A DNA stretch of 43,905 nucleotides from Chrysochromulina tobinii. Its lineage: Eukaryota. The stretch is taken from the NCBI GenBank assembly GCA_001275005.1, contig JWZX01003026.1:1-43905 (forward strand). Reading direction: 5' to 3'. Positions 1 to 38,570 of this stretch are shown in pieces (position 1 is the stretch's first letter; each line of letters starts with the position of its first letter). Position numbers and translations under genes: made by a program. Under the pieces are notes generated by a model. It saw nothing but the letters and a program-made list of their open reading frames with translations. It had not been told where the DNA came from and did not search any database.

Positions 1-759
1 ACCAGCATGGCCAGCCACATGCCGTCGTGTTCCGCAACGTTCGCTGCGTGCCAGACTTCCACTACACGCTGCTCTCGGTCACGCAGCTCTGGGAAGAACA
101 GCGCATCGACGCGCAATTCGCCGACAGCCGCTCTCTCCGCCTGCCCAACGGCATGCGCTTCCCATACCTTGCCAACCGTCGCCTGCCGTCTCTCTCCATG
201 GTCAGCACAGCTCGCCTCGTGCCCAAGCCACCATCCACCCTGGTCGCCGCGCCCAATCTGCCGACCACGCTGGGGCGCTCGTCACCTTCCTTGACGCATC
301 CGCCGCCCGGTTTGGGGTTAGTGGTGTCTCCGTTGTCCGCTTCCAGCTCGAGCACCTCCGAGCTTCCACCTGTTCACGAGGTTAGGAGCCTTGGAGCTGA
401 GCCAGCCCCTCGGGAGGACTGCACTCTCCCTGGCTGCACCGTAAATCCTCCATCAGCTCCATCAGCTCCACCTGGCCTGTCACAGCCAGCCGCTGCCTCC
501 GTCGCCTCCAATCAGGCTCCTTCGCCCCAGTTTGCAGCCCCCTCGCCGCCTCTGCACTCGAGCTCGCCATCGCCTGCTTCTACTGGTACTGCAGCACCCC
601 CCGAGCCAAAGGTGTTCCCTGAGTACAGAGGGCCTCAACACCCTCCCACTCTCGAGAACCAGCGGCAAGGAGCACTGCCCACTTCATCGACCGCCTCCAA
701 CCGGGCTCTTGGGTTCCATCGCGTCGGCGCCACCTCCCACGTCGCTCGCCTCCCAGCGA

Positions 760-3573
760 CTCACCGGCAGGCCGCCGCGTGTGATGGACCTCGCCTCCTT
801 TGGCTCACGCGCCGTCGTGCTCAAGCCACCGACTCACCAGCACAAGCCGAGCCTCAGCCCGCGCGGCTGGCTTGGCTCCTTTCTCGGCCGCTCCCGCTAT
901 TCCAAGGGGGGGTACGACGTGCTAGTCGGCCAGAAGATCGTCACCTCGTCGAGCGTCCTTGTCGACGAGGAACACTTCGACTGGGCTCCGCTTGCCAAAC
1001 GGCACCAGCCCCTCACCGCCGTCGCTCACGCCCCCGAATCGCCTCAGCGTCCGACCGCCCCGCCTCGCCTTCTGCCCGCCGGCGCCCCCGCGACGCGCAC
1101 CCTCGCCGACCCAATCTTCGGCCCCGCGCCATTATTGACGTCCTCGGTCCACGGGGGGGTCTCGCTGCCCCCTCCTCGCGACGATGGGGGGGTGCCATCA
1201 CCATCGCCCTCGGCCTCACAGCCCGCGCCGCAATCCCCACCATCTCCGCCTCGTTCGTCATTGCCGCGCGCTTCCCCCGTCGCCTTCCCCCCGCTCGACG
1301 ACCCACCTACCAACGCCTGTGACGGCGTTCCGCAGCGCGCTGCCCGCCCCAAGCCCTTGGTCGACTACTTCAAGAAGCAGCCCCGCAGGCGTGAGTGGGG
1401 CCCCAAATGGCTTGATGCGGTTGGTGCCGACCCCAGAATCCCCGGGCCCCTCGCCACCGTGCCCGAGGAGACGCCCTCGACCCCACCGGCTCCCTCGCCT
1501 CCATCGCCGTCGGCTGCGCTCTCGCCTCTACCCGCTTCCTCGCCCGTGGATTACTCCCCCGACGGCACCCACGGATTCGGCTCCTCATACACTCCCTTTG
1601 TTACGGCCGATGCCTCCGAGCCTCTTCCGCCCCTTCCTCCCGGCGCTGCCCTCCGACTCGAGATGACCGGCACCCGCGCCGCGCTGCACGCGCACCTCTA
1701 TTCACACCTCGACATCATGGAGGCATCCGTCGCTCAGACGCTCTTGGCCGCGGCCGCCGACGCGCCCTTGCCGAGGGCAGCAACTCTTGACCTAGTACCG
1801 ATCTCGCCGTGGTCCGCTCTCGACAGCCATCGCGTCCCTCACAAATCGGTGCGGCTTCCCGGCGGCGGCCGCGCTCTGCCCGTGTTTGTCGCCCTCGGGC
1901 TCAACGAGGACCTTTACTCGCCTGACGTACTGACCAATCTTGCTCGTCTTGGCCAAGCTCTTCGCGCCGACTCTCCCGGAGCTCCTTCCACTCATCGTGA
2001 GGCCGTTGAGGCTGGGCAGATCTGGCTAGATGCCGAAGCCAAAGAGCTTGGCAACCACGCGCGGAACGCCTCCTGGACTTCGATTCCGCGCAGCGAGGTC
2101 CCGAGCGATCGCCGCATCCACAAGCTGATATGGGTGTACAAGCTCAAGCGCGACGGGTCAGCCAAGGCGCGACTGTGCGTGCAAGGCAACACTTTGCAGC
2201 CGGGAGTCGACTTTGACCAAACCTGGTCCTCTGCCCTCCGCTATTCTTCAGCACGCGCGCTCTTCGCCTACGCCGCGCGCAAGGGTTGCCGCGTGCGCAG
2301 CGTAGATCTGGTCGCCGCTTACCTGCAAGGCCGCTTCGTCGACGGCGAGGTCGTCTACTGCTACCTTCCGACCGGCTACGTCGAGCTCGACTCCAACGGT
2401 CAACCTCTGATCGCCCGTGTCGAAAAACCTATATATGGCATCCAACAGGCAGGCCGTCGCCTCCAACGCATGCTCTTTGCGTGGTTAATCGCACAAGGCT
2501 TCACCGCCCTCGATGACTCCGACCCTTGCGTGTTCACTCGCGTTCACCCTGACGGCGAGATCATCACCATCGGCGTGTACGTCGACAACCTTCAGATCGT
2601 GCACTCCGCCGTGCTCGACGCCGACGGCCGCGGCCCCGCTGGTTGTGCCTACAACTCCTTCATGGACTCGCTCGCCGGCGACTGGGACATCACCGACGAG
2701 GGCCCCATGGAGGACCTCCTCGGCATCGAGGTAGACTACCTCGCAGACGGCGCGATCAAACTGCACCAGACGTCCTACATCAAGAAGCTCGTCGAACGCT
2801 TCCTTCCGCACGGTCCGCTTGAGAAAGTGCAGCGCGGCTCGCTGCCCTACTCGTCCGACTTCCTCAAGCACATCGCCGACGCGCTCGCGCTCCCCCCGGA
2901 GAGCTATCCGGAGCTGGTCCGACCCATGCAGGAGCGCCTCGGCTGCCTCATGTACGCGGCAACATCTACTCGCTGTGATATCGCCTTCCCTGTGCACTAC
3001 CTGTGTAAGTGCCTTCAGCGACCTACGCCCGAGCTCATCCGCGAGACGGACTTTATCCTCTCGTACCTCGCGCGCTTGCCGTCAGCTGGCCTTACGTACA
3101 CACGCGAGCAGATGCGCCTTTCGGGCTTCTCCGACGCGTCGTGGGAGACAGCGGCCTCGACGTCTGGCTGGGTGGTACTGTGGCAATCAGCCGCGCTGTC
3201 CTGGGGCTCGCGCAAGCAAAAGTCCATCGCGCTGTCTTCCTGCGAGGCCGAGATCATCGCCCTCTCCGAGGCCGCCAAGGACGTGGTCTACCTGCGCAAG
3301 CTCATTCGCGGCCTCGGCGAGCCCGAGCCCGGACCGTCGACGCTCGCCACCGATTCCCAGAGCGCGCGTGACGTCTCATACAACCCAGAGCACCATGATC
3401 GCATGAAACACGTCCAACGACGGCACTTCTTCATCCGCGACATGGTCGAATCCTTCGAGATCGAGGTGCCCTTCGTGCGCACCGCCGACAACCTCGCCGA
3501 CTTCTTCACAAAGCCGATGAAATCCGCCAACCGGTTCCACGCCTTCAGGAAAACTATTATGAACGAGCTGTGA
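760..3573 (+). CDS. copia pol C-terminal frame: SH3-like post-integrase region, reverse transcriptase, RNase H
   Basis: Uninterrupted frame (ORF 532..3573) carrying the copia RT and RNase H motifs; homology appears to begin near 760. Confidence 0.9.
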   Translation, partial: LTGRPPRVMDLASFGSRAVVLKPPTHQHKPSLSPRGWLGSFLGRSRYSKGGYDVLVGQKIVTSSSVLVDEEHFDWAPLAKRHQPLTAVAHAPESPQRPTAPPRLLPAGAPATRTLADPIFGPAPLLTSSVHGGVSLPPPRDDGGVPSPSPSASQPAPQSPPSPPRSSLPRASPVAFPPLDDPPTNACDGVPQRAARPKPLVDYFKKQPRRREWGPKWLDAVGADPRIPGPLATVPEETPSTPPAPSPPSPSAALSPLPASSPVDYSPDGTHGFGSSYTPFVTADASEPLPPLPPGAALRLEMTGTRAALHAHLYSHLDIMEASVAQTLLAAAADAPLPRAATLDLVPISPWSALDSHRVPHKSVRLPGGGRALPVFVALGLNEDLYSPDVLTNLARLGQALRADSPGAPSTHREAVEAGQIWLDAEAKELGNHARNASWTSIPRSEVPSDRRIHKLIWVYKLKRDGSAKARLCVQGNTLQPGVDFDQTWSSALRYSSARALFAYAARKGCRVRSVDLVAAYLQGRFVDGEVVYCYLPTGYVELDSNGQPLIARVEKPIYGIQQAGRRLQRMLFAWLIAQGFTALDDSDPCVFTRVHPDGEIITIGVYVDNLQIVHSAVLDADGRGPAGCAYNSFMDSLAGDWDITDEGPMEDLLGIEVDYLADGAIKLHQTSYIKKLVERFLPHGPLEKVQRGSLPYSSDFLKHIADALALPPESYPELVRPMQERLGCLMYAATSTRCDIAFPVHYLCKCLQRPTPELIRETDFILSYLARLPSAGLTYTREQMRLSGFSDASWETAASTSGWVVLWQSAALSWGSRKQKSIALSSCEAEIIALSEAAKDVVYLRKLIRGLGEPEPGPSTLATDSQSARDVSYNPEHHDRMKHVQRRHFFIRDMVESFEIEVPFVRTADNLADFFTKPMKSANRFHAFRKTIMNEL

Positions 3574-5302: not shown

Positions 5303-5540
5303 CCATTTTGGGCTTTCTTGTTAACAGTGAAACGAGACACAGCGACACAGGGGGCGCGAACAACCACAAAATAATCTGTAATCTCGGAAAAGCTGTGGGG
5401 AGCTAAGCACAGTGAGAGTTAGAGCGACCAGTGATCTGCGAGCCCACCCTCGCGAAGTGGTGGGGCACAGGCCGATTCGATGACCTTTTCAAAAGTTTTG
5501 TTCACAGGACATTGTTGCGAAGACGCGCCTTTTGGCGCCC

Positions 5541-6469
5541 ATGGCCGACTTCGACGATGGTGTGGCTCACGCTCGATTCAACTCCCACCACGCCCATATC
5601 GCTCGCCAACTCTGAATGCCCGTATCATCGCACCCTCGTACCGTGCGCGCAGCACCCTCGAGCAGTACCTCGGACGACATTGAGCGGCTGCGTATTGTGT
5701 GCGTCAACGAGCGCTTTGCGCCCGAGCTGCTGCCACACGAGGCGGAGCTCATCAAGCGCTTGCAGGACATGGTCGAGGAGCAGGTGAGTGTGCGCACATG
5801 TCACCCTGCAGCAAGTGGATATTGCTCGCGCCTCACCGGCGATCCTGCTCGCACAGGAGAAACGGATTTCCGAGCTCAGAGCAGACCAGTCGCAGTCGCG
5901 CCTGATCTATGAGCTGGAGAAGGAGCGCGTCATGTATCGACTATCCTCGTATTTGAAGGCGCGCATCTGTAAGATCAAACGTCTCGCGCTGTACCTCGCC
6001 TCCCCCGAGGGTGCCGATGCACGCTCACACATGACCGATAAGGTACGTGCGAGGCGCGTGTGCTGCTACGCTGTCAAGCCCCCCGGCGGTGCTGCGAGTG
6101 GCCACCGAGCTCGAACCCGACCACGCCCCCGCCGACGCCTTAACCACCGCGCCACCCTGTGTGCAGGAGCAAACCTTCCACAATAAGTACGTGGAGCTGT
6201 ACAAAGAGCATGTGATGCTGGAGGCATGGGGGCACGCAAGCGCACAGGCATTGCCGCCCCGTGTCAAGGACATCGCCTCGGCGGCTGAGCTTCTTGCGAA
6301 GCCGCCCAACATCCAGACGCACGTCTTCTGCGTCGCCACGCGCGCGTGTGACCCGATCGTGCTGAGCAGTGGTAGAGTAGTCGATCAGCTCGCCAGAGGC
6401 GAGGTAGCCATGCTACCGTATGCGCCACTCCGCCCGCTGCTTGCCAATGGCGACGTGCAGCTGTGCTAG
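5541..6469 (+). CDS. SLD5: DNA replication GINS complex subunit Sld5; 4 exons: 5541-5559, 5653-5783, 5857-6042, 6167-6469
   Basis: NERFAPELLPHE, YELEKERVMYRLSSYLKARICKI, PPNIQTHVFC and C-terminal YAPLRPLLANGDVQL match Sld5/GINS4. Three GT...CAG introns join the pieces in frame. Confidence 0.88.
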
Positions 6470-6850
6470 ACTGAAGCCTGCTGGGGGGGCTGCCGTGCCA
6501 TGTGCTTGGCGTTGTAAGCCTGTGTCTGGACCGGATCGGCAGAACCGCTGAAGGCGGGCGGAGAAGGGCCGGGACTGGGGGGAGAGCGGGGAGTCGCATC
6601 CGGGCGGCGGGTAACGATGAACCCACGACCCGACGCCGCCCACGACCGAACCGGGTCGTCGCGTCTCCCGAGATCCGCCCACCGTATGCTGCGCTCGCCG
6701 CTCATCCTAATTTTTTGTAATACGCGGTGTATGCGTCGATTTGTTCTGATATTTGAAGAAGCTGATAAATTGTCACACTGATACAGCCGCTGTTAACCGG
6801 ATAGTGGGTGCCTAGCTGCGTCCCTGTTTCCGGTGCTTCTCTGCAATGTG

Positions 6851-6922
6851 AACGCCGCGCTTGCCTCAAGTCTTTGCGTCCCAGTGGCGTGGGTTTCAGC
6901 GTAGACCTTCATGAGCGGTGTC
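6851..6922 (-). promoter_or_regulatory. candidate eukaryotic SECIS element (form II) in the 3' UTR of the 7400..6990 gene
   Basis: Minus strand reads CCGCUC-AUGAA-GGUCUACGCUG-AAA-CCCA-CGCCAC-UGGG-ACGCAAAGACU-UGAG-GCAAGCG. It has an AUGA/UGAG core, a GGUCU/AGACU helix II, unpaired AAA 12 nt above AUGA, a CCCA/UGGG mini-stem and a CGCU/AGCG helix I. Confidence 0.72.
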
Positions 6923-6989
6923 GTTCGCGAGGGTGGGTAGTCGGTGCCTAACTAGAAGAAGGTAAAGAGGGGATGCGAGAGCCTGTCAC

Positions 6990-7400
6990 TTAGCCCGGCG
7001 GAGCGCCGCGGCGACCTCCACCTTTGGTACCATGGGACGGGGGTTGCTGCTGGCTCTTGACCCCCGTGCGTCAGGGCTTGATAAACTTTTTCGCGCCGAA
7101 CTCGCCCTGCATGCGGTACTCCTTGACCTTAACATCTTGGCGGATCTCCTCGCGCGAACCACCCTCGATGCAGGAGCCGAAGAGATCCTCGGCCGTGACT
7201 TTGCGCTGCTGCCTCTGTTCATCGCACGATGACAACACAGCTTCCGCGTGCGCGAGCCGGGCGGCCACGATGGCTGCGATGATGGCTCTCCGCTTGGTTT
7301 CCAGCGCACTGGCGGCGGACGCGGAGACGGGTTCACACAGATCACCCTGGGACGGGCTCGCAAACGGGCTCGCGGTTGCGAAGCCGAGTTCCTCGAGCAT
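6990..7400 (-). CDS. candidate selenoprotein of unknown family, 136 aa with Sec at residue 110 (109 aa if TGA is a stop)
   Basis: ATG at 7400 follows an AT-richer upstream region. The frame MLEELGF...YRMQGEFGAKKFIKP-TGA(7073..7071)-RTGVKSQQQPPSHGTKGGGRRGAPPG ends at TAA (6992..6990), with the SECIS-like hairpin downstream. Confidence 0.62.
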
Positions 7401-7652
7401 ATCCCTTCGACACGTTCCCGGCACCGTTCCCTGTGAACAAGCTCCTGGAAAAAGTATTTAAACATTCAACCTTGCTTCACCAACAGACACCTTTCCACCA
7501 ATCTCAGTTATTTGCCGTTCTGACGCGACAATTCCACATTGACGAGCAAGCCGCCTCGCCGCACGCCGGTGCTCGCTAAGTGAAACCGGCAATTCACTTT
7601 GGTTTGGCACCGACACTAGGCGCTTGGCTATCTTGTAGTACGACCACCCGAA

Positions 7653-10600
7653 CTAGGCTAGTAGTACTACCTTGAGCGAGGCTCGCTTGGGCTTGGTGTC
7701 GGGCTTGGGACTGCCGACCTTCTCGCTCACCTCGAGACTCGAGGTGAGCGAGAAGGTCGGGGTGGCGAAACTGCCGTCCGTGATGCGCCGTTCGCCGGGC
7801 TGGCCTCGACGCGCGGCGCGCTCGGTGCCCTTCGTCTGGAACTCGTCCAAAGCCATCTCGACGATCTCGTCGGCCGTGTGCTGCCGCGGCTTGTCCCCCG
7901 CCGCCAGTGCTCCTCCCGCGCCGGTCAGCTGCCATAGCTTCTGGGCCTCCTTCGCCTGGCGCGTCTTGAGCGCCTCCTCTGAGACGAAGGACATGGCGAT
8001 CGGAGCGAACTCGCCACCGCCCTCGCCCTGACGGTCCTTGTCGAGGGAGATGATCACCTTGGGGTCGCAGGCACCCTTGAGGAACAGGGAGATGTCATAC
8101 GTGCCATCTTCGTGGTCCTCGACCTCGAGGAGCGCCTCCTGCTGCGGCGGCAGGTTGGCCGACTGCAGCCGGCCTGCGACGGCCGCGCCGCCGTGATCAA
8201 CCCGGTTGCCGCACCGGTCCTTGACCGTCAACAGGATCGAATACTTGCGCTGCGAGAAGAGGGCATTCGACACCGGACACTCTGGGTCTGTCGGCAGCTC
8301 GTAGCTCGAGCGTCCAATGTCGGGCAGGTTGGGGATGCACTCAAAGTCGACTGGTGAGCCCGCAATGGGCGCGCCCGCGAGTCGCACGTGCATTGCGTAC
8401 CGCCCCGCGAGCTGCGGCTCGTAGCGAACGTCGTAGTTGGTGAGGCCCGACCGGATGGAGATGTTCGGCATCAGCTCGAGCTCGGTGCCCTCGGGGGTCG
8501 TGAGTGTCACGCTCAGCGCACCTTCGGCCGCCGCGGTGTTGTTTCCCAGCTTGTCGCGGATGCGAGGGCGCACCACGATAGGCTCACCTGCGAGGATCTC
8601 ATTCGAGTCCTCGTAGGTGCTCCTCAGCTCGCGCATCTGGCTCCGCTTCTGGGCTGTTACCTGCTGCTTGAGCCCGGCGCCCTTCCCGCGCCCCTCCGCG
8701 TTCGGGTCGAGCCGCGTGAAACCCTCGACGCTGCTTCCGCGCGCGTGAGCGCGGCCCGCCGCGCAGTGCATCTCAAAGGGCGAGAGCGGTAGCGCGACGC
8801 GCTTGTCGTCGTCGTCGGCGCAGCACCACACGTGCAGCTCGAGGTCACCCGCCACATCAGCCACGTACTTCACCTCAAACTCCGCGCCGTGCCACGTGCC
8901 CTCGATCGGATGTGCGACGGCACTCTTCCACCGATCGGCTATGATCGTCTTCTCAGCACGGTCTTTCTTATCGACGCCTTCGACGGGAGGAAGCATGGCC
9001 ATCTCGAACTTGAGATTGGCCGACGGCTGCGCCGCGTTGCCGAAGCGGTCCTTGCACTTAATGCGGAAATCCGCGGGCTTGCCGGCCACCGCCTTGGTCA
9101 ACCCGCTTCCGATGAGCTCCGACTGCTTCAGATCGGGCGGCTCGCTCGTGAGCGTGAGTGGCATGGGGGACCCGAGAATGGGAACGCCGTCCACGCTCAC
9201 GTGCGCGTCGAAGACGCCCGCCACCTTCGAGCGCCATACGAGCAGGTAAGTGCCATCGTTGTTGTCGACCACACGCGACTCGATCCTCTTGTCGCCGCCA
9301 GAGCACACGATAGTCGCACCGCCCGCCTCGCACGCGTTGCCCATCATATCAGACGCCTTGAGCACCACGCGGCAGCCCGACTCACTCGAGTTGCCCACCA
9401 CACCGCGCATAGGCAGCATGTGCGCGAGCACTGCCGTAGTGAGCGCAGAGGCGGGCCCAGCCGACACCTTGAGCACGAACGGTGACCCAGGCAGCTGGAC
9501 GCCTTCGTGCCGGAGGGCCACGTGCAGACGGTAGGTGCCGCACATGGCGATCGAGTAATGCACGTTGTGCACCTCGACGATCTGGCCGTGGGCATGCAAA
9601 CGACCCGGGTCGACTCCGCCAAACGCGAAGCCGATGCGCTTCGGGTCGGAAGCGAGCTCGTTGGCGTACACGGACTGGTACGAGGCCGCGTCTATCGTGC
9701 TCTTGATCCGCTTGTGCGTATCAACCGTGGGCAGCGCCACGGCCGTCGCGAGCTTGCCAAGGCGAGCAGCGCCGACAGCCTTCGATATCTGCATCGCCAG
9801 CATAGCCTCGCCGCCAAAGCGGCGGTCGACGGCGATCCGTCGCGCCCACATGATCTGATGCTGCTGCCGCTCGCCCGCCGGCAACACGCCGCGTGGTGTG
9901 ACCAGCTCTCGCCCACCCTTGTGCACAGTCACCCACCCGATGGCCTGCCGGGGAGTCGCTGCCCCCCTCCCTCGGGGCGACGAACGTGGGGCGGGGGCAG
10001 CGGGGACGGGCTTAGGCATGTCGGTTGCAGTTTGGCTCGTCGAAGCGTGGAAGGTGGTCGAGGGTTGGCTGGTCGAAGCGTGGAAGGTGGTCGAAGCGTG
10101 GAAGGACGATGAGGGAGGCGCAGAGGCGGCGGCGATGGCCTGGGCTGAGGAGGGCTTGGTTGGCGTCCTGGGCGTGCGTGGGGTTGCCGATGATCGGCGG
10201 CGGCCGCTGCTGCTGCCACTCGAGCTGGGGCCGGCGGTGGCCGTGTAGTGCCCGAATGGCGCAAACGTGCCTGCCCGGAACGGCGACCCATTCTCGTGGC
10301 TCGGCAGCGGCAGCGGCGGCTCCACCGGACGCGTGCCACCGCCCGGGCTGCGCGGCGTGCGTCCGGGGGATTTGGCGCGGGGGGTGGGCACGCTCTCAAG
10401 CCATTGCGGGCGTACGACGTGCGCGTCCCGCCAGTCATAGCGTCCCGGGAGGTCGAGCTCTGGCCCATCGTTCTCATCCGCGAGCGCGACCGACGCTCGC
10501 ACCGCGGGTTGACCATCCTCGACAGTGTGCACGCACTCCAATAAGGTCAGCCGTTGACCCGGGTAGAGCTGCCCAAGCTTTTCGCTCTCGAGCTCGAGGC

Positions 10601-30936: not shown

Positions 30937-32580
30937 CTAAACTACGTGGTCCCTCTTCTTGCGCGGCGCATGATTTGCGCCTCGGACGCTCGCCGCGCTG
31001 CTGCCGCGCAAGAGCGAGGCGCCGCACATCCACGCAAACAGCAGCAGGACGATCGCACCCGCCGCAAGACCGTACGGTCGCAACTCGGCGCTGAGCCCTC
31101 CTTGCGGTCGCGTCTCGCCCATGCGCGTGAGATCGTTCCAGCACTCGAAGCGCGGCTCGAGGCAGAAGTGCTCGTAGAGCACCTTGAGCACGAGGGAGCG
31201 CCTCCAGTGCACCGAGGCCTTGACGCCCGGTTGGGGGCGCGACACCTCGCGGCACTCGGGGCAAAGGGAGCGAGAGGGCCACTGCACCTTGGCGAACTCT
31301 GCGAACTGCGCTGCGGCCGAGTCGGTGAGCTCCGCAGCGCCCAAGCGCTCGTTGACGTGGTTGTGCGCCTGCCAGAGCCAGAGCGCGGCACGGTGGCGCC
31401 CGTGCTCGTGCTCGCTCGCCATCTCGCGCACGTCCTTCTCGAGCGCCGCCGCGAGCACCATGAAGTGGCCGCGGCAGTCCTCGCACCCGAAAAACTCCTT
31501 GACGTAGCCGACGACGGCATGGAGGCTCGGTAGGGCCTCGGGCTCGGAGGCGTGCGCGAGCAGGCTGTGGAAGAGCAGCCAGAGCGCACACGGATATGCA
31601 TGCAGCTCCGCATGCGACGAGTTGCATGCATGCCATGACGATGGCCACGCGTCCACGCCGCTCTGCGTCAGCAACGCTCGCCACTCCTCGGGACTCGGCA
31701 GCGACGCCCGCCCGTGCAGCCCGCTGAGCAACTCGGAGGCGCCCGTGGCGGCGGCGCCGCCGTCGCGCCCGTGCGGGAGCGCGCGGTGCAGCAGGTGCAG
31801 CCACGCGCGCAGCGCGCCCAGTTTGGTGCGCGCGTATGCATGCGAGGGCGCCGCCGAGAGCGTAGCGAAAATCTCCAGCTCGAGCGTATAGCGCGCTGCC
31901 GCGAGCACATCGTCCACAGGCACTGGCCACGGCATCGGGCGCAGCTGGAGCATGGCGGCGTCTGCGGCCGGATGCTGAATCACCACCGACGCATTATGTG
32001 CGGCGTGCTGCAGCATGGAACCGACCGCGCGTGCGGCGGCGTCGCCCTGCCGCATCACGTCATTCGCCACCATGCGCCCGACTGCCTGCGAAGCCGCTGC
32101 TGCAACAGTGGCTGCCGTGGCCGCAGCGTCGGGCACGGCTGCAGCCGTGCCCGTGCTCGTCCTATGCTGCTCCTGCACCCACGCAAACACAGCCTCCTTG
32201 GTGTGCGAGCCCTCAAACTTTTTCTCACCTGGGAACAGGACAATCGTCGGGTACGCGCTTATGCCGTGTGAAGTGCAAATATCCTTGTGCTCAGGACAGT
32301 TGACGGCGGCGACCTTCAGCTCCGGAAACTCGCGGCGCGCCTGCAGCGCGATCGCCTCGTACGTCGGCGCAAATTTCTGGCAGTGGCCGCACCAGGCGCT
32401 GTAGTATTCAATCAGTGTGAATGGCTGCTCGCTGCCTGCACCCGAAGGCACCTCCGAGAGAGCAACGTAAGAGGTGACGGGCGAATCAGCCTTGTAGAGG
32501 CCCTCCGCATGCACCGCGGCCGCGATCGCGATAGAGAGGAGCGCGAGGGTGCGACCGCCGCACAATGGGTTGTCGGCCAT
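30937..32580 (-). CDS. QSOX: quiescin-sulfhydryl oxidase (thioredoxin + Erv/ALR domains, C-terminal TM)
   Basis: Signal peptide, Trx YSAWCGHC, Erv YPCALWLLFH...FFGCEDCRGHF...LWLWQAHNHVNERL, KVQWPSRSLCPEC and a TM helix near the C-terminus. Confidence 0.92.
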   Translation of the reverse strand: MADNPLCGGRTLALLSIAIAAAVHAEGLYKADSPVTSYVALSEVPSGAGSEQPFTLIEYYSAWCGHCQKFAPTYEAIALQARREFPELKVAAVNCPEHKDICTSHGISAYPTIVLFPGEKKFEGSHTKEAVFAWVQEQHRTSTGTAAAVPDAAATAATVAAAASQAVGRMVANDVMRQGDAAARAVGSMLQHAAHNASVVIQHPAADAAMLQLRPMPWPVPVDDVLAAARYTLELEIFATLSAAPSHAYARTKLGALRAWLHLLHRALPHGRDGGAAATGASELLSGLHGRASLPSPEEWRALLTQSGVDAWPSSWHACNSSHAELHAYPCALWLLFHSLLAHASEPEALPSLHAVVGYVKEFFGCEDCRGHFMVLAAALEKDVREMASEHEHGRHRAALWLWQAHNHVNERLGAAELTDSAAAQFAEFAKVQWPSRSLCPECREVSRPQPGVKASVHWRRSLVLKVLYEHFCLEPRFECWNDLTRMGETRPQGGLSAELRPYGLAAGAIVLLLFAWMCGASLLRGSSAASVRGANHAPRKKRDHVV

Positions 32581-36749: not shown

Positions 36750-38570
36750 CTACTCGCGCTGCTGAGGTAATACCTGTTCCTGCCGGAGCGCAGCGAGCTC
36801 CGCACGCAGCCGCGCGTTCTCTTCGAGCAGCGCACGCGTCTCCGATTGCAGCCGCGGCAGCATCTCGATGGCTTGGCGAATCTCTTCGAGATCGGCCGGC
36901 CGCTCGAGCGTCGTCGATGCATGCGTGACGATCGCGTCAGTGAGCTCGCGCTCGGTGCGGTGATGGCTCAGCTCGTACGCATCCGTCGCGCCTGCGCGGA
37001 TGAAGAGGATGGTGGGCAGCTTGTCGATGCGGAGGGTGCGCGGCAGGTCATTGACGCCCGCGTCGAAGCGCGCGATGCGGACTCGGGATTCGTCCTGCCA
37101 GCGCCCGGCAACCGCCTCAAACTCGGCGTCGAGCGCCTCACACCCATCACACCAGTCCGTGGTGACGAGGAGGAGCACGTCAACGGTCGCCTCGAGCACG
37201 AGCTCGTCAAAGGTCGAGGCCACCACGATCGTGAGCGGCTCCAGGTTGAGCAGCGGCGGCGCCACGGAGCGAAGGGTGGGCGCGAGGGTGCCCGCTACGA
37301 CGCCTCGCACCCACCCACCTAGCTGCTCACGCGCTGCCACGGTCGGCTCCCATGCCGACGTACCGACGCCGCCGCCACCGCCGCCCTCCGCATCGGCCGC
37401 GTCCGGAGCAGCCGCGCCCTTGCGCGTCGGCGGCGCGTACACGTAGTGCGCGCCATCATGCTCGGCAGCGAGCGCGGGAAGCAACTCGCGGTTCAGGGCG
37501 AGCGAGGCAGCGTGCTGCTCATACCTCTCGGCATCGAGCCATACGAAGAGGGCGCGCCCCCTCCAGCCGGCGGCGACGCTGCGCACGAGCTCGCGGGCGT
37601 CATCGTTGCGCCCAGCCTCCTCGGCTGACGCATTCACAAAGAGCCAAAAGAGAGGCAGGGGCGGCGCCGCCTCCTCGGCCCTCCCTCCCGCCGCCACGCC
37701 TCCGCGCGCCTCGTACTGATCGAAATTGTGCGGTCCGATCTCGGCAAGCAGCGGCAAGCGGTAGAGCCCGAGCCAGCTGGCCAACTGCTGCTCGAGGATG
37801 GCCTCAGTGTGCGCGCGCGATTCGGCTGCGGCCGTTGCCTCCTCGCCCGAGGCGGCCTCATTGCCTTCCGCGCTCAGTTCACCTGGATAGACGAACGTCT
37901 CGGCATCGGGGCCGTCGAGGCCGCGGCAGAGGACAAGAAAGGGCTGCCCTTGTCCCTTTCCGTGCCAGATGAGCTTGCCGCTAGACTCGGCAAGCTCGTT
38001 GGCGAGGCTCGGTGACGCTACCACGAAGCTCACTTGGCGGCGCAGCCGCGCATCCGCCGCTGGCAGCGCTGCAAAGACGGTGCGCGCCATCGAGCCCGGC
38101 GTCGCGAAGAGCACGGCCGTCAGCTCACTAGCGCGGATCTCCTCGTAGATGTTCTCCGTGGTCGTTGCCTCGAGAAGCGCAGGCGACGCCTCTCGGCGCA
38201 GGTGGGAGGCGAGGGCTGTGGCTGACGTGAGAGGACCACGGAAGACAGCTGGCGCGTCGGCGTCGCCGTGGTACAGGCGAAGCGCAGGAAACGAGCGGAT
38301 CCCTGATGTCTCAGCAAGCTGTGCATCCTCGCTGACGGCGACTCGCACAGCCGCCGGAAGCAGCCCGGTGACAGAAGACAGCAGTGGCCTCAAGCCGGAA
38401 GGCTCGTGTGGGCACTCGGGCAACGCATGGAGCAGCAGCACGAGCGTTGACCCGGCAACGAAGCTTGTGAAGTTGCTCCTGTCGATCTGCGCCAGCGGTA
38501 AGGCGAGCGTGCAGTCCAACCGTGTGGCCAACAGCAAGGTCAGCGTAAGGAAGCCCACAGGAGCCCACAT
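36750..38570 (-). CDS. protein disulfide isomerase-like protein (a-b-b'-a' layout; first site degenerate, last site WCDGC)
   Basis: Signal peptide MWAPVGFLTLTLLLA, GIRSFPALRLY, LPLLAEIGPHNFDQY, PLTIVVASTFDELV..DVLLLVTTDWCDGC..IARFDAGVND..LPTILF and a C-terminal coiled coil. Confidence 0.82.
   Translation of the reverse strand: MWAPVGFLTLTLLLATRLDCTLALPLAQIDRSNFTSFVAGSTLVLLLHALPECPHEPSGLRPLLSSVTGLLPAAVRVAVSEDAQLAETSGIRSFPALRLYHGDADAPAVFRGPLTSATALASHLRREASPALLEATTTENIYEEIRASELTAVLFATPGSMARTVFAALPAADARLRRQVSFVVASPSLANELAESSGKLIWHGKGQGQPFLVLCRGLDGPDAETFVYPGELSAEGNEAASGEEATAAAESRAHTEAILEQQLASWLGLYRLPLLAEIGPHNFDQYEARGGVAAGGRAEEAAPPLPLFWLFVNASAEEAGRNDDARELVRSVAAGWRGRALFVWLDAERYEQHAASLALNRELLPALAAEHDGAHYVYAPPTRKGAAAPDAADAEGGGGGGVGTSAWEPTVAAREQLGGWVRGVVAGTLAPTLRSVAPPLLNLEPLTIVVASTFDELVLEATVDVLLLVTTDWCDGCEALDAEFEAVAGRWQDESRVRIARFDAGVNDLPRTLRIDKLPTILFIRAGATDAYELSHHRTERELTDAIVTHASTTLERPADLEEIRQAIEMLPRLQSETRALLEENARLRAELAALRQEQVLPQQRE

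Follow-up and report, generated by a model that had tools for sequence, protein, structure and literature searches.

An apparently undescribed gene family of algae and giant viruses that very probably encodes selenocysteine

The UGA-interrupted gene of the Chrysochromulina tobinii window

The stretch of DNA analysed here, referred to as the window, comprises 43,905 nucleotides from Chrysochromulina tobinii. It is eukaryotic, with a GC content of approximately 64% and GT-AG introns in a gene neighbouring the one under study. The gene under study is interrupted by an in-frame UGA and is flanked by a filamin-repeat gene (11756-7653) read in the same direction and by an SLD5-like gene that converges with it; its features are collected in Table 1. 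The SLD5-like (GINS) gene, at approximately 5540-6469 on the plus strand, has introns near 5784-5856 and 6043-6166 and is covered by RNA to approximately 6760, its RNA contigs ending where those of the UGA gene end.

Table 1. Features of the UGA gene and its 3' region in the window
Feature	Position	Strand	Basis
ORF, single exon, 136 aa with UGA readthrough (109 aa without)	6990..7400	-	ORF list, unspliced RNA contigs, strain comparison
Ala-rich helix, residues 27-64 (predicted)	7209..7322	-	AlphaFold2 and alignment
RKVTAEDLFG, short conserved motif, residues 66-75, predicted one-turn helix	7176..7205	-	Homologue comparison and AlphaFold2
Conserved core motif, residues 98-119, Q-x-E-[FY]-G-x-K-K-x-I-K-P-U-R-T-G-x-K-S-Q-Q	7044..7109	-	Alignments
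In-frame TGA, predicted Sec110	7071..7073	-	TGA in 136 of 137 family matches listed, TAA in one
C-terminal tail, basic, Gly/Lys/Arg-rich, made only with UGA readthrough	6993..7043	-	ORF translation; homologue charge; viral pN/pS
Type II SECIS-like element, 3' UTR	6858..6917	-	Core AUGAA 6912-6908 / UGAG 6868-6865, AAA 6896-6894, apical mini-stem 6893-6880
RNA contigs spanning ORF and hairpin	6751..7420	- (contigs themselves do not give strand)	RNA runs

The first-pass annotation of this DNA had proposed a minus-strand reading frame that starts at ATG 7400, meets a single TGA as codon 110 in the context YRMQGEFGAKKFIKP-UGA-RTG, and stays open for 26 further codons up to a TAA at 6992-6990. We found the frame to be exactly so. 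We looked for an intron or an early transcript end that would separate the UGA from the hairpin downstream, and saw neither. In six of the six RNA runs examined (of 14), UGA and hairpin lay together on unspliced contigs without a joint, a single contig spanning ORF and hairpin in five runs and two overlapping contigs doing so in one; these contigs reveal neither the strand nor the true ends of the transcript. The neighbouring gene was spliced in five of the same six runs, and the RNA contigs showed no splicing from the upstream filamin gene into the UGA gene. Comparison of the window with strain loci L001 and L002 gave zero substitutions over 6819-7415, with variable sequence on both flanks; a further locus, L003, was identical to the window over the compared stretch and so gives no independent support. 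An alternative-frame ORF of 159 aa (7465-6986) was rejected, as its start lies upstream of all RNA contigs and in the strain-variable region.

A hairpin had also been claimed downstream on the same strand. It is present, with its core 77 nt past the stop and 158 nt past the UGA, and RNAfold returned the same shape. The element has an AUGAN...NGAN core, a helix I in which CGCU pairs with AGCG (6917-6914 with 6861-6858), an apical AA 11-13 nt above the core and an apical mini-stem (CCCA/UGGG). Helix II (5' arm 6907-6897, 3' arm 6879-6869) does contain mismatches, as had been cautioned, but is weaker than had been described: there are two 2x2 mismatches rather than one, leaving 7 of 11 positions paired. 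The stability of the hairpin resembled that of shuffled sequences (z -1.23, and z -0.18 in a second run). The Rfam SECIS_1 model (RF00031) reached 16.6 bits for it (cut-off 35; E 1.2), and did so only in a scan of 231 bases; over 2.2 kb or the whole window it made no SECIS call. A strict SECIS descriptor, composed after the hairpin was seen, passed it as the sole site on both strands of the 43.9 kb; a covariance model derived from AT-rich viral elements missed this GC-rich hairpin. By itself the window locus is suggestive rather than decisive, and what raises the observation above chance is its conservation in homologues and not the single locus.

Homologues and the codon at the UGA position

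Protein searches returned 12, 40, 182 (the best 120 of the 182 listed) and 38 matches, and a pattern leaving the codon at the UGA position free found at least 120 loci in IMG/VR, with approximately 140 estimated. The motif IKP-UGA-RTGxKSQQ was conserved across haptophytes, diatoms and giant viruses. Residues flanking the UGA (K, P, R, T, K, S, Q and Q) were nearly invariant, and codon tables of the core motif showed that third positions vary. Among the 137 codon-free matches listed (the window together with loci L001-L136, amounting to 113 distinct sequences), the codon was TGA in 136, TAA in one and Cys or Trp in none; the family sequences are related by descent, so such counts are not independent events. 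When the pattern was restricted to upstream residues it gave 104 matches, of which 102 were in the family (101 with TGA, one with TAA) and two were unrelated. All 15 of 15 metagenome loci carried TGA followed by RTGxKSQQ. Nine matches to a pattern requiring TGC, TGT or TGG were found in viral contigs, none of them related to the family. Named members include Chrysochromulina rotalis, the source of the one named relative of the window's own type, and the diatoms Pseudo-nitzschia arenysensis, P. delicatissima and Thalassiosira antarctica, whose protein records end at IKP.

The first-pass annotation had looked to homologues for retention of TGA, conservation beyond it and SECIS elements behind the stop, and all three were found. 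Cys homologues, which it had counted as further possible support, appeared in none of the searches, and among the matches listed Cys occupied the UGA position in 0 of 177 database proteins.

Database records themselves would suggest that the protein stops at the UGA, at 109 aa in the window, with the rest being UTR, or else that UGA globally encodes Trp: of 178 database proteins among the matches listed, 56 end exactly at IKP and 116 have W next. However, seven of the seven W-proteins that could be matched to DNA carry TGA, and one cluster contains both W and IKP-ending forms, so the W in databases is a gene-caller reading. Single cases of G, R and D at this position are known from protein records, not DNA, and the G and R codons (in two database proteins) are single-base neighbours of TGA. 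Neighbouring viral ORFs stop at TGA in 28 of 236 cases and use TGG for Trp, which argues for the standard code in these viruses. Selection also continues past the UGA, with a pN/pS of 0.17 before it and, over the unforced codons +15 to +21, of 0.15 after it (69 viral sequences from one clade); these downstream codons are under purifying selection. No other reading frame was open throughout all homologues. A protein ending at the UGA, or a reassigned UGA, is therefore highly improbable.

The true stop of the family was TAA in 121 and TAG in 16 of the 137 matches and TGA in none, which is what recoding of UGA by a 3' element would predict. This also counts against leaky readthrough without selenium, in which a near-cognate tRNA (Trp, Cys or Arg) would act at UGA-C to give short and tailed isoforms, and the kink-turn would bind some other L7Ae-family protein. 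The same holds for the finding that a sense codon replaces the UGA in 0 of the 137 DNA matches listed. Other codon evidence runs in its favour. UGA-C is a leaky stop context, and the Arg after the UGA is encoded by CGN in 112 of 113 sequences, versus 167 of 239 upstream Arg codons; the lack of any Cys homologue would fit leaky readthrough as well. The 3' elements, considered below, bear on it from both sides.

A tree of 50 rows had good support at only 6 of 47 branches, and the window's own row was lost to de-duplication; the tree being poorly resolved, we claim no direction of transfer. Among prokaryotes there were three pattern matches in 185,579 genomes, two of them chance and one (L137) family-like, and a search of phages gave no family match. 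Locus L137 (1523-4808), from a Candidatus Shapirobacteria bin, is an AT-rich contig with a viral-type gene and hairpin, and is likely a misbinned giant-virus contig. One viral copy, L124, has TAA in place of UGA together with an intact tail and a full-length hairpin, reflecting either recent inactivation or an assembly error.

Giant-virus members and the 3' RNA elements

All 11 classified viruses, of 18 bins looked up, belong to family IM_01 of the Mesomimiviridae (table of PMC8575486), and cultured Mesomimiviridae infect Chrysochromulina and Phaeocystis (PMC8575486). Genes neighbouring the viral copies include those for NCLDV major capsid protein, VLTF3, A32 and RNA polymerase. Gene order is not conserved, the biggest group with shared neighbours comprising eight loci. 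At one such neighbourhood (L016, 2162-7640) the translated ORFs resembled, by eye, PRPP synthetase, GAPDH, an ABC ATPase and a fatty-acid desaturase, and one looked Bax-inhibitor-like. The family gene was single-copy in four of four viral genomes searched. In three viral genomes no tRNA-Sec scored above the cut-off, the weak matches being ordinary tRNAs.

We compared the regions behind the gene across the family with a descriptor of the kink-turn core plus two helices. Of the distinct 3' regions it matched 102 of 116. The controls gave 11 of 116 for reverse complements, 14 of 107 for regions upstream, 22 of 111 for regions further downstream and 170 of 580 for shuffles. Two provisos apply: the window's twin L001 came out as "none", its helix I being cut off by a 130-nt limit, and by eye the register was wrong in a few loci (L061, L071, L088, L113 and L136). 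An RTGAC lay at most 90 nt from the stop in 99 of 113 viral-type loci versus 5 of 113 on the other strand. Positions 1-4 of helix II were paired in 43, 39, 39 and 38 of 45 elements picked by sequence alone, without a pairing test, compared to shuffled means of 27, 24, 33 and 26. The covariation score of 33 longer elements was 0.59, versus 0.22 when shuffled and at most 0.23 when slid, for a set that was selected for pairing and in which kin share changes. Applied to 17 held-out loci, a viral covariance model built from 33 elements placed its match directly after the gene in 11, its ten best hits among them; over three whole viral genomes, with 150 candidates scored per genome, it found nothing. 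Rfam SECIS_1 matched 5 of 20 loci at E values up to 5, all below the cut-off (best 32.8 bits), and RF00031 gave no match in three viral genomes. No SECIS was found in the Mimivirus genes examined in PMC3521657.

Elements in the family range from full type II structures down to hairpins of approximately 45 nt. The cellular homologues L013, L014 and L015 have type II shapes with apical A's (z -3.45 for L013), and the contig of L004 ends too early to show a 3' element. In contrast, 31 of 99 viral elements have at most 20 nt between the core halves. These short elements retain the kink-turn core without the usual helix length, and the canonical helix II length and apical AA are absent from the same number, although cores and stems covary; in 26 of the short elements a compensatory change was seen at 9 of 11 predicted pairs. 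From the list of filters, the shortened hairpins would probably fail the length filters of SECISearch3.

Loss of helix length with retention of the core would suit a role for the viral mRNA as a sink, tying up SBP2 and Sec-tRNA and so lowering host selenoprotein synthesis, and host selenoprotein expression does shift during giant-virus infection of Aureococcus (PMC5917014). This idea concerns the viral copies only. It leaves the cellular gene in need of a separate explanation, and purifying selection on viral codons past the UGA argues that the protein product matters; we consider it quite improbable. The many short viral hairpins, and the weakness of the window hairpin, would also fit leaky readthrough. 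Type II SECIS shapes with apical A's in the cellular homologues stand against it, as do the codon data above, and overall we judge leaky readthrough very unlikely.

We conclude that the window gene in all likelihood encodes a selenoprotein of 136 residues, with SECIS-directed insertion of Sec by the host at UGA 110 as the presumed step. By analogy with established eukaryotic recoding, the hairpin in the 3' UTR would be the docking site of the host's selenocysteine machinery, with SBP2 on the kink-turn core and eEFSec bringing Sec-tRNA to the UGA. The Mesomimiviridae would carry a stripped version of 65-90 residues with its own hairpin, and would borrow the machinery of the host.

The predicted protein, its possible function and its relation to known selenoproteins

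The protein had been described as belonging to no known family, and comparison with Pfam, NCBIfam, PHROGs and PDB sequences brought no match. Nor did these four resources support a suspected resemblance to the basic tail of ribosomal protein eS30. Unlike the thioredoxin-fold selenoproteins (GPx, SelW/T/H/M/U, PDI and Prx), the family has neither this fold nor a CxxU/UxxC-type motif, as had been noted from the window sequence: there was no profile match, no strands were predicted, and a Cys within 12 residues of the predicted Sec is absent in 132 of 137 listed. A viral sub-group (L026, L073 and L084), with NTCSGTAFIKP ahead of the UGA, is among the few with such a Cys. The claim that there is no transmembrane helix is likely right, although the window protein is a borderline case (best 19-residue hydropathy 1.68).

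AlphaFold2 gave a pTM of 0.20 (core) and 0.29 (full-length protein), with coil around the predicted Sec. The Ala-rich helix (pLDDT above 90 at residues 31-50) is found in haptophyte-type cellular members and is missing from viral and diatom members. The EDLF motif forms a short predicted helix at residues 70-74, and a loose form of RKVTAEDLFG occurs in 80 of 110 distinct sequences. Net charge past the UGA was +5 to +8 in three examples. Some cellular homologues carry upstream domains, namely La (E 1.5e-16), R3H (weak, E 0.0013), ubiquitin-like and ankyrin, as fusions of various types.

These features suggest how the protein might act. A basic, unfolded segment could dock onto a partner and offer it one selenol whose redox or covalent chemistry would need a partner thiol for its resolution, as in the tails of SELENOK and SELENOS. 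We tentatively propose, by analogy and with rather more doubt than conviction, that the family is a portable docking motif presenting one selenol, probably in an RNA-protein setting; the case for this setting is thin because the fusions come from automatic gene calls of differing kind. With Sec insertion retained, the function could instead be that of a selenium switch, in which selenium must be available for the basic tail to be made, the tail perhaps serving as a signal for localisation, RNA binding or degradation, and selenol chemistry is secondary. A pure switch predicts that no Cys substitute occurs in any homologue, as we found, and the positive charge of the tail and the lack of any predicted fold or active site are compatible with it. 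On the other hand, the near-invariant residues on both sides of the UGA suggest one continuous binding motif centred there, and the viruses keep the gene in single copy (4 of 4 genomes). The switch competes only with the functional part of the selenoprotein reading; we think it unlikely, and still a minority prospect if Sec insertion is granted.

SELENOK and SELENOS carry Sec at penultimate positions, whereas in the family loci compared it lies 13-30 residues from the C-terminus (26 follow in the window). The family also differs from them in lacking their Pfam similarity and any convincing membrane helix, with none at all in viral members. It resembles them in small size, in placing Sec within a disordered Gly/Pro/basic segment (disorder: PMC13059024), and in occurring in algae almost only in the Sec form (PMC7539508).

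The family shares with eukaryotic SECIS-dependent genes (type II; RF00031; PMC3753652) an in-frame UGA, a 3' UTR hairpin, a UGAN core with GA on the far side and helices I and II, and in cellular copies also apical A's and a third helix. The differences are that about a third of the viral elements are shortened, and that the family lacks a Cys homologue, which most known selenoproteins have according to PMC3753652. Molluscum contagiosum virus MC066L (GPX1-like) and a fowlpox GPX4-like protein are likewise products of viral UGA genes with a eukaryote-type SECIS read by the host, and were described in 2019 as the only proven viral selenoproteins (PMC6769590). However, the poxvirus proteins are captured, folded peroxidases, whereas here an unfolded motif protein is spread over an estimated 140 or so IMG/VR contigs of Mesomimiviridae.

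Haptophytes and diatoms are rich in selenoproteins (PMC7539508), and other alga-restricted families of unknown function have come from SECIS searches, such as the Ostreococcus hypothetical selenoproteins 1-3 and MSP (PMC2375036) and further algal families (PMC7539508). The sequences of the three Ostreococcus proteins given in PMC2375036 have no motif in common with the UGA family, and none of the families in the abbreviation list of PMC7539508 fits, in a comparison by family name. The motif did not occur in the supplementary files searched from PMC2375036, PMC6627142, PMC5917014 and PMC3753652. A full-text literature search covering open papers gave no description of the family, although the "Hypo" list of PMC7539508 or the "hypothetical" list for Aureococcus could include it. 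We therefore describe a conserved gene, very probably encoding selenocysteine on the evidence of comparative sequence analysis, whose family is common to algae and giant viruses and is apparently undescribed.

Going further, we suggest that a fold-less family in which Cys never substitutes for Sec may have been exchanged between phytoplankton and Mesomimiviridae, and that the viral copies may recruit the selenocysteine machinery of the host by means of a minimal hairpin, a kink-turn with neither the canonical helix length nor apical adenines; we hold this to be nearly as probable as its negation. If so, no selenoprotein family common to cells and viruses would precede it outside the poxviruses, and it would be a natural test of the minimal SECIS. 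The dozens of natural SECIS variants attached to one gene family make the minimal needs of eukaryotic UGA recoding testable. Since gene callers truncate or mistranslate the family and searches based on Sec/Cys pairs are blind to it, algal selenoproteomes are likely undercounted. More than 100 giant-virus contigs keep a gene that algal hosts also have, and virus replication in the plankton would thereby be linked to trace selenium. A Sec never replaced by Cys, in an unfolded peptide, also presents a clean case for what selenium does beyond sulfur.

Other features of the window were seen in passing. The genes at 30937-32580 (minus strand; QSOX-like, with thioredoxin and Erv1 domains) and 36750-38570 (minus strand; PDI-like) have no strict SECIS call and encode ordinary CxxC motifs. 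A near-perfect inverted repeat at 7703-7772 lies in the 3' end of the filamin-repeat ORF, its matches to miRNA precursors being far below cut-off. At 445-3573 on the plus strand is a Copia-type retrotransposon pol region (RVT_2, E 2.5e-30). Finally, a 60-base stretch at 5412-5474 (plus strand), which forms a GC-rich hairpin and matches no Rfam family, was 90-95% identical to high-depth contigs of other sequences in every RNA run examined, unlike its flanks, and may be part of a conserved non-coding RNA.
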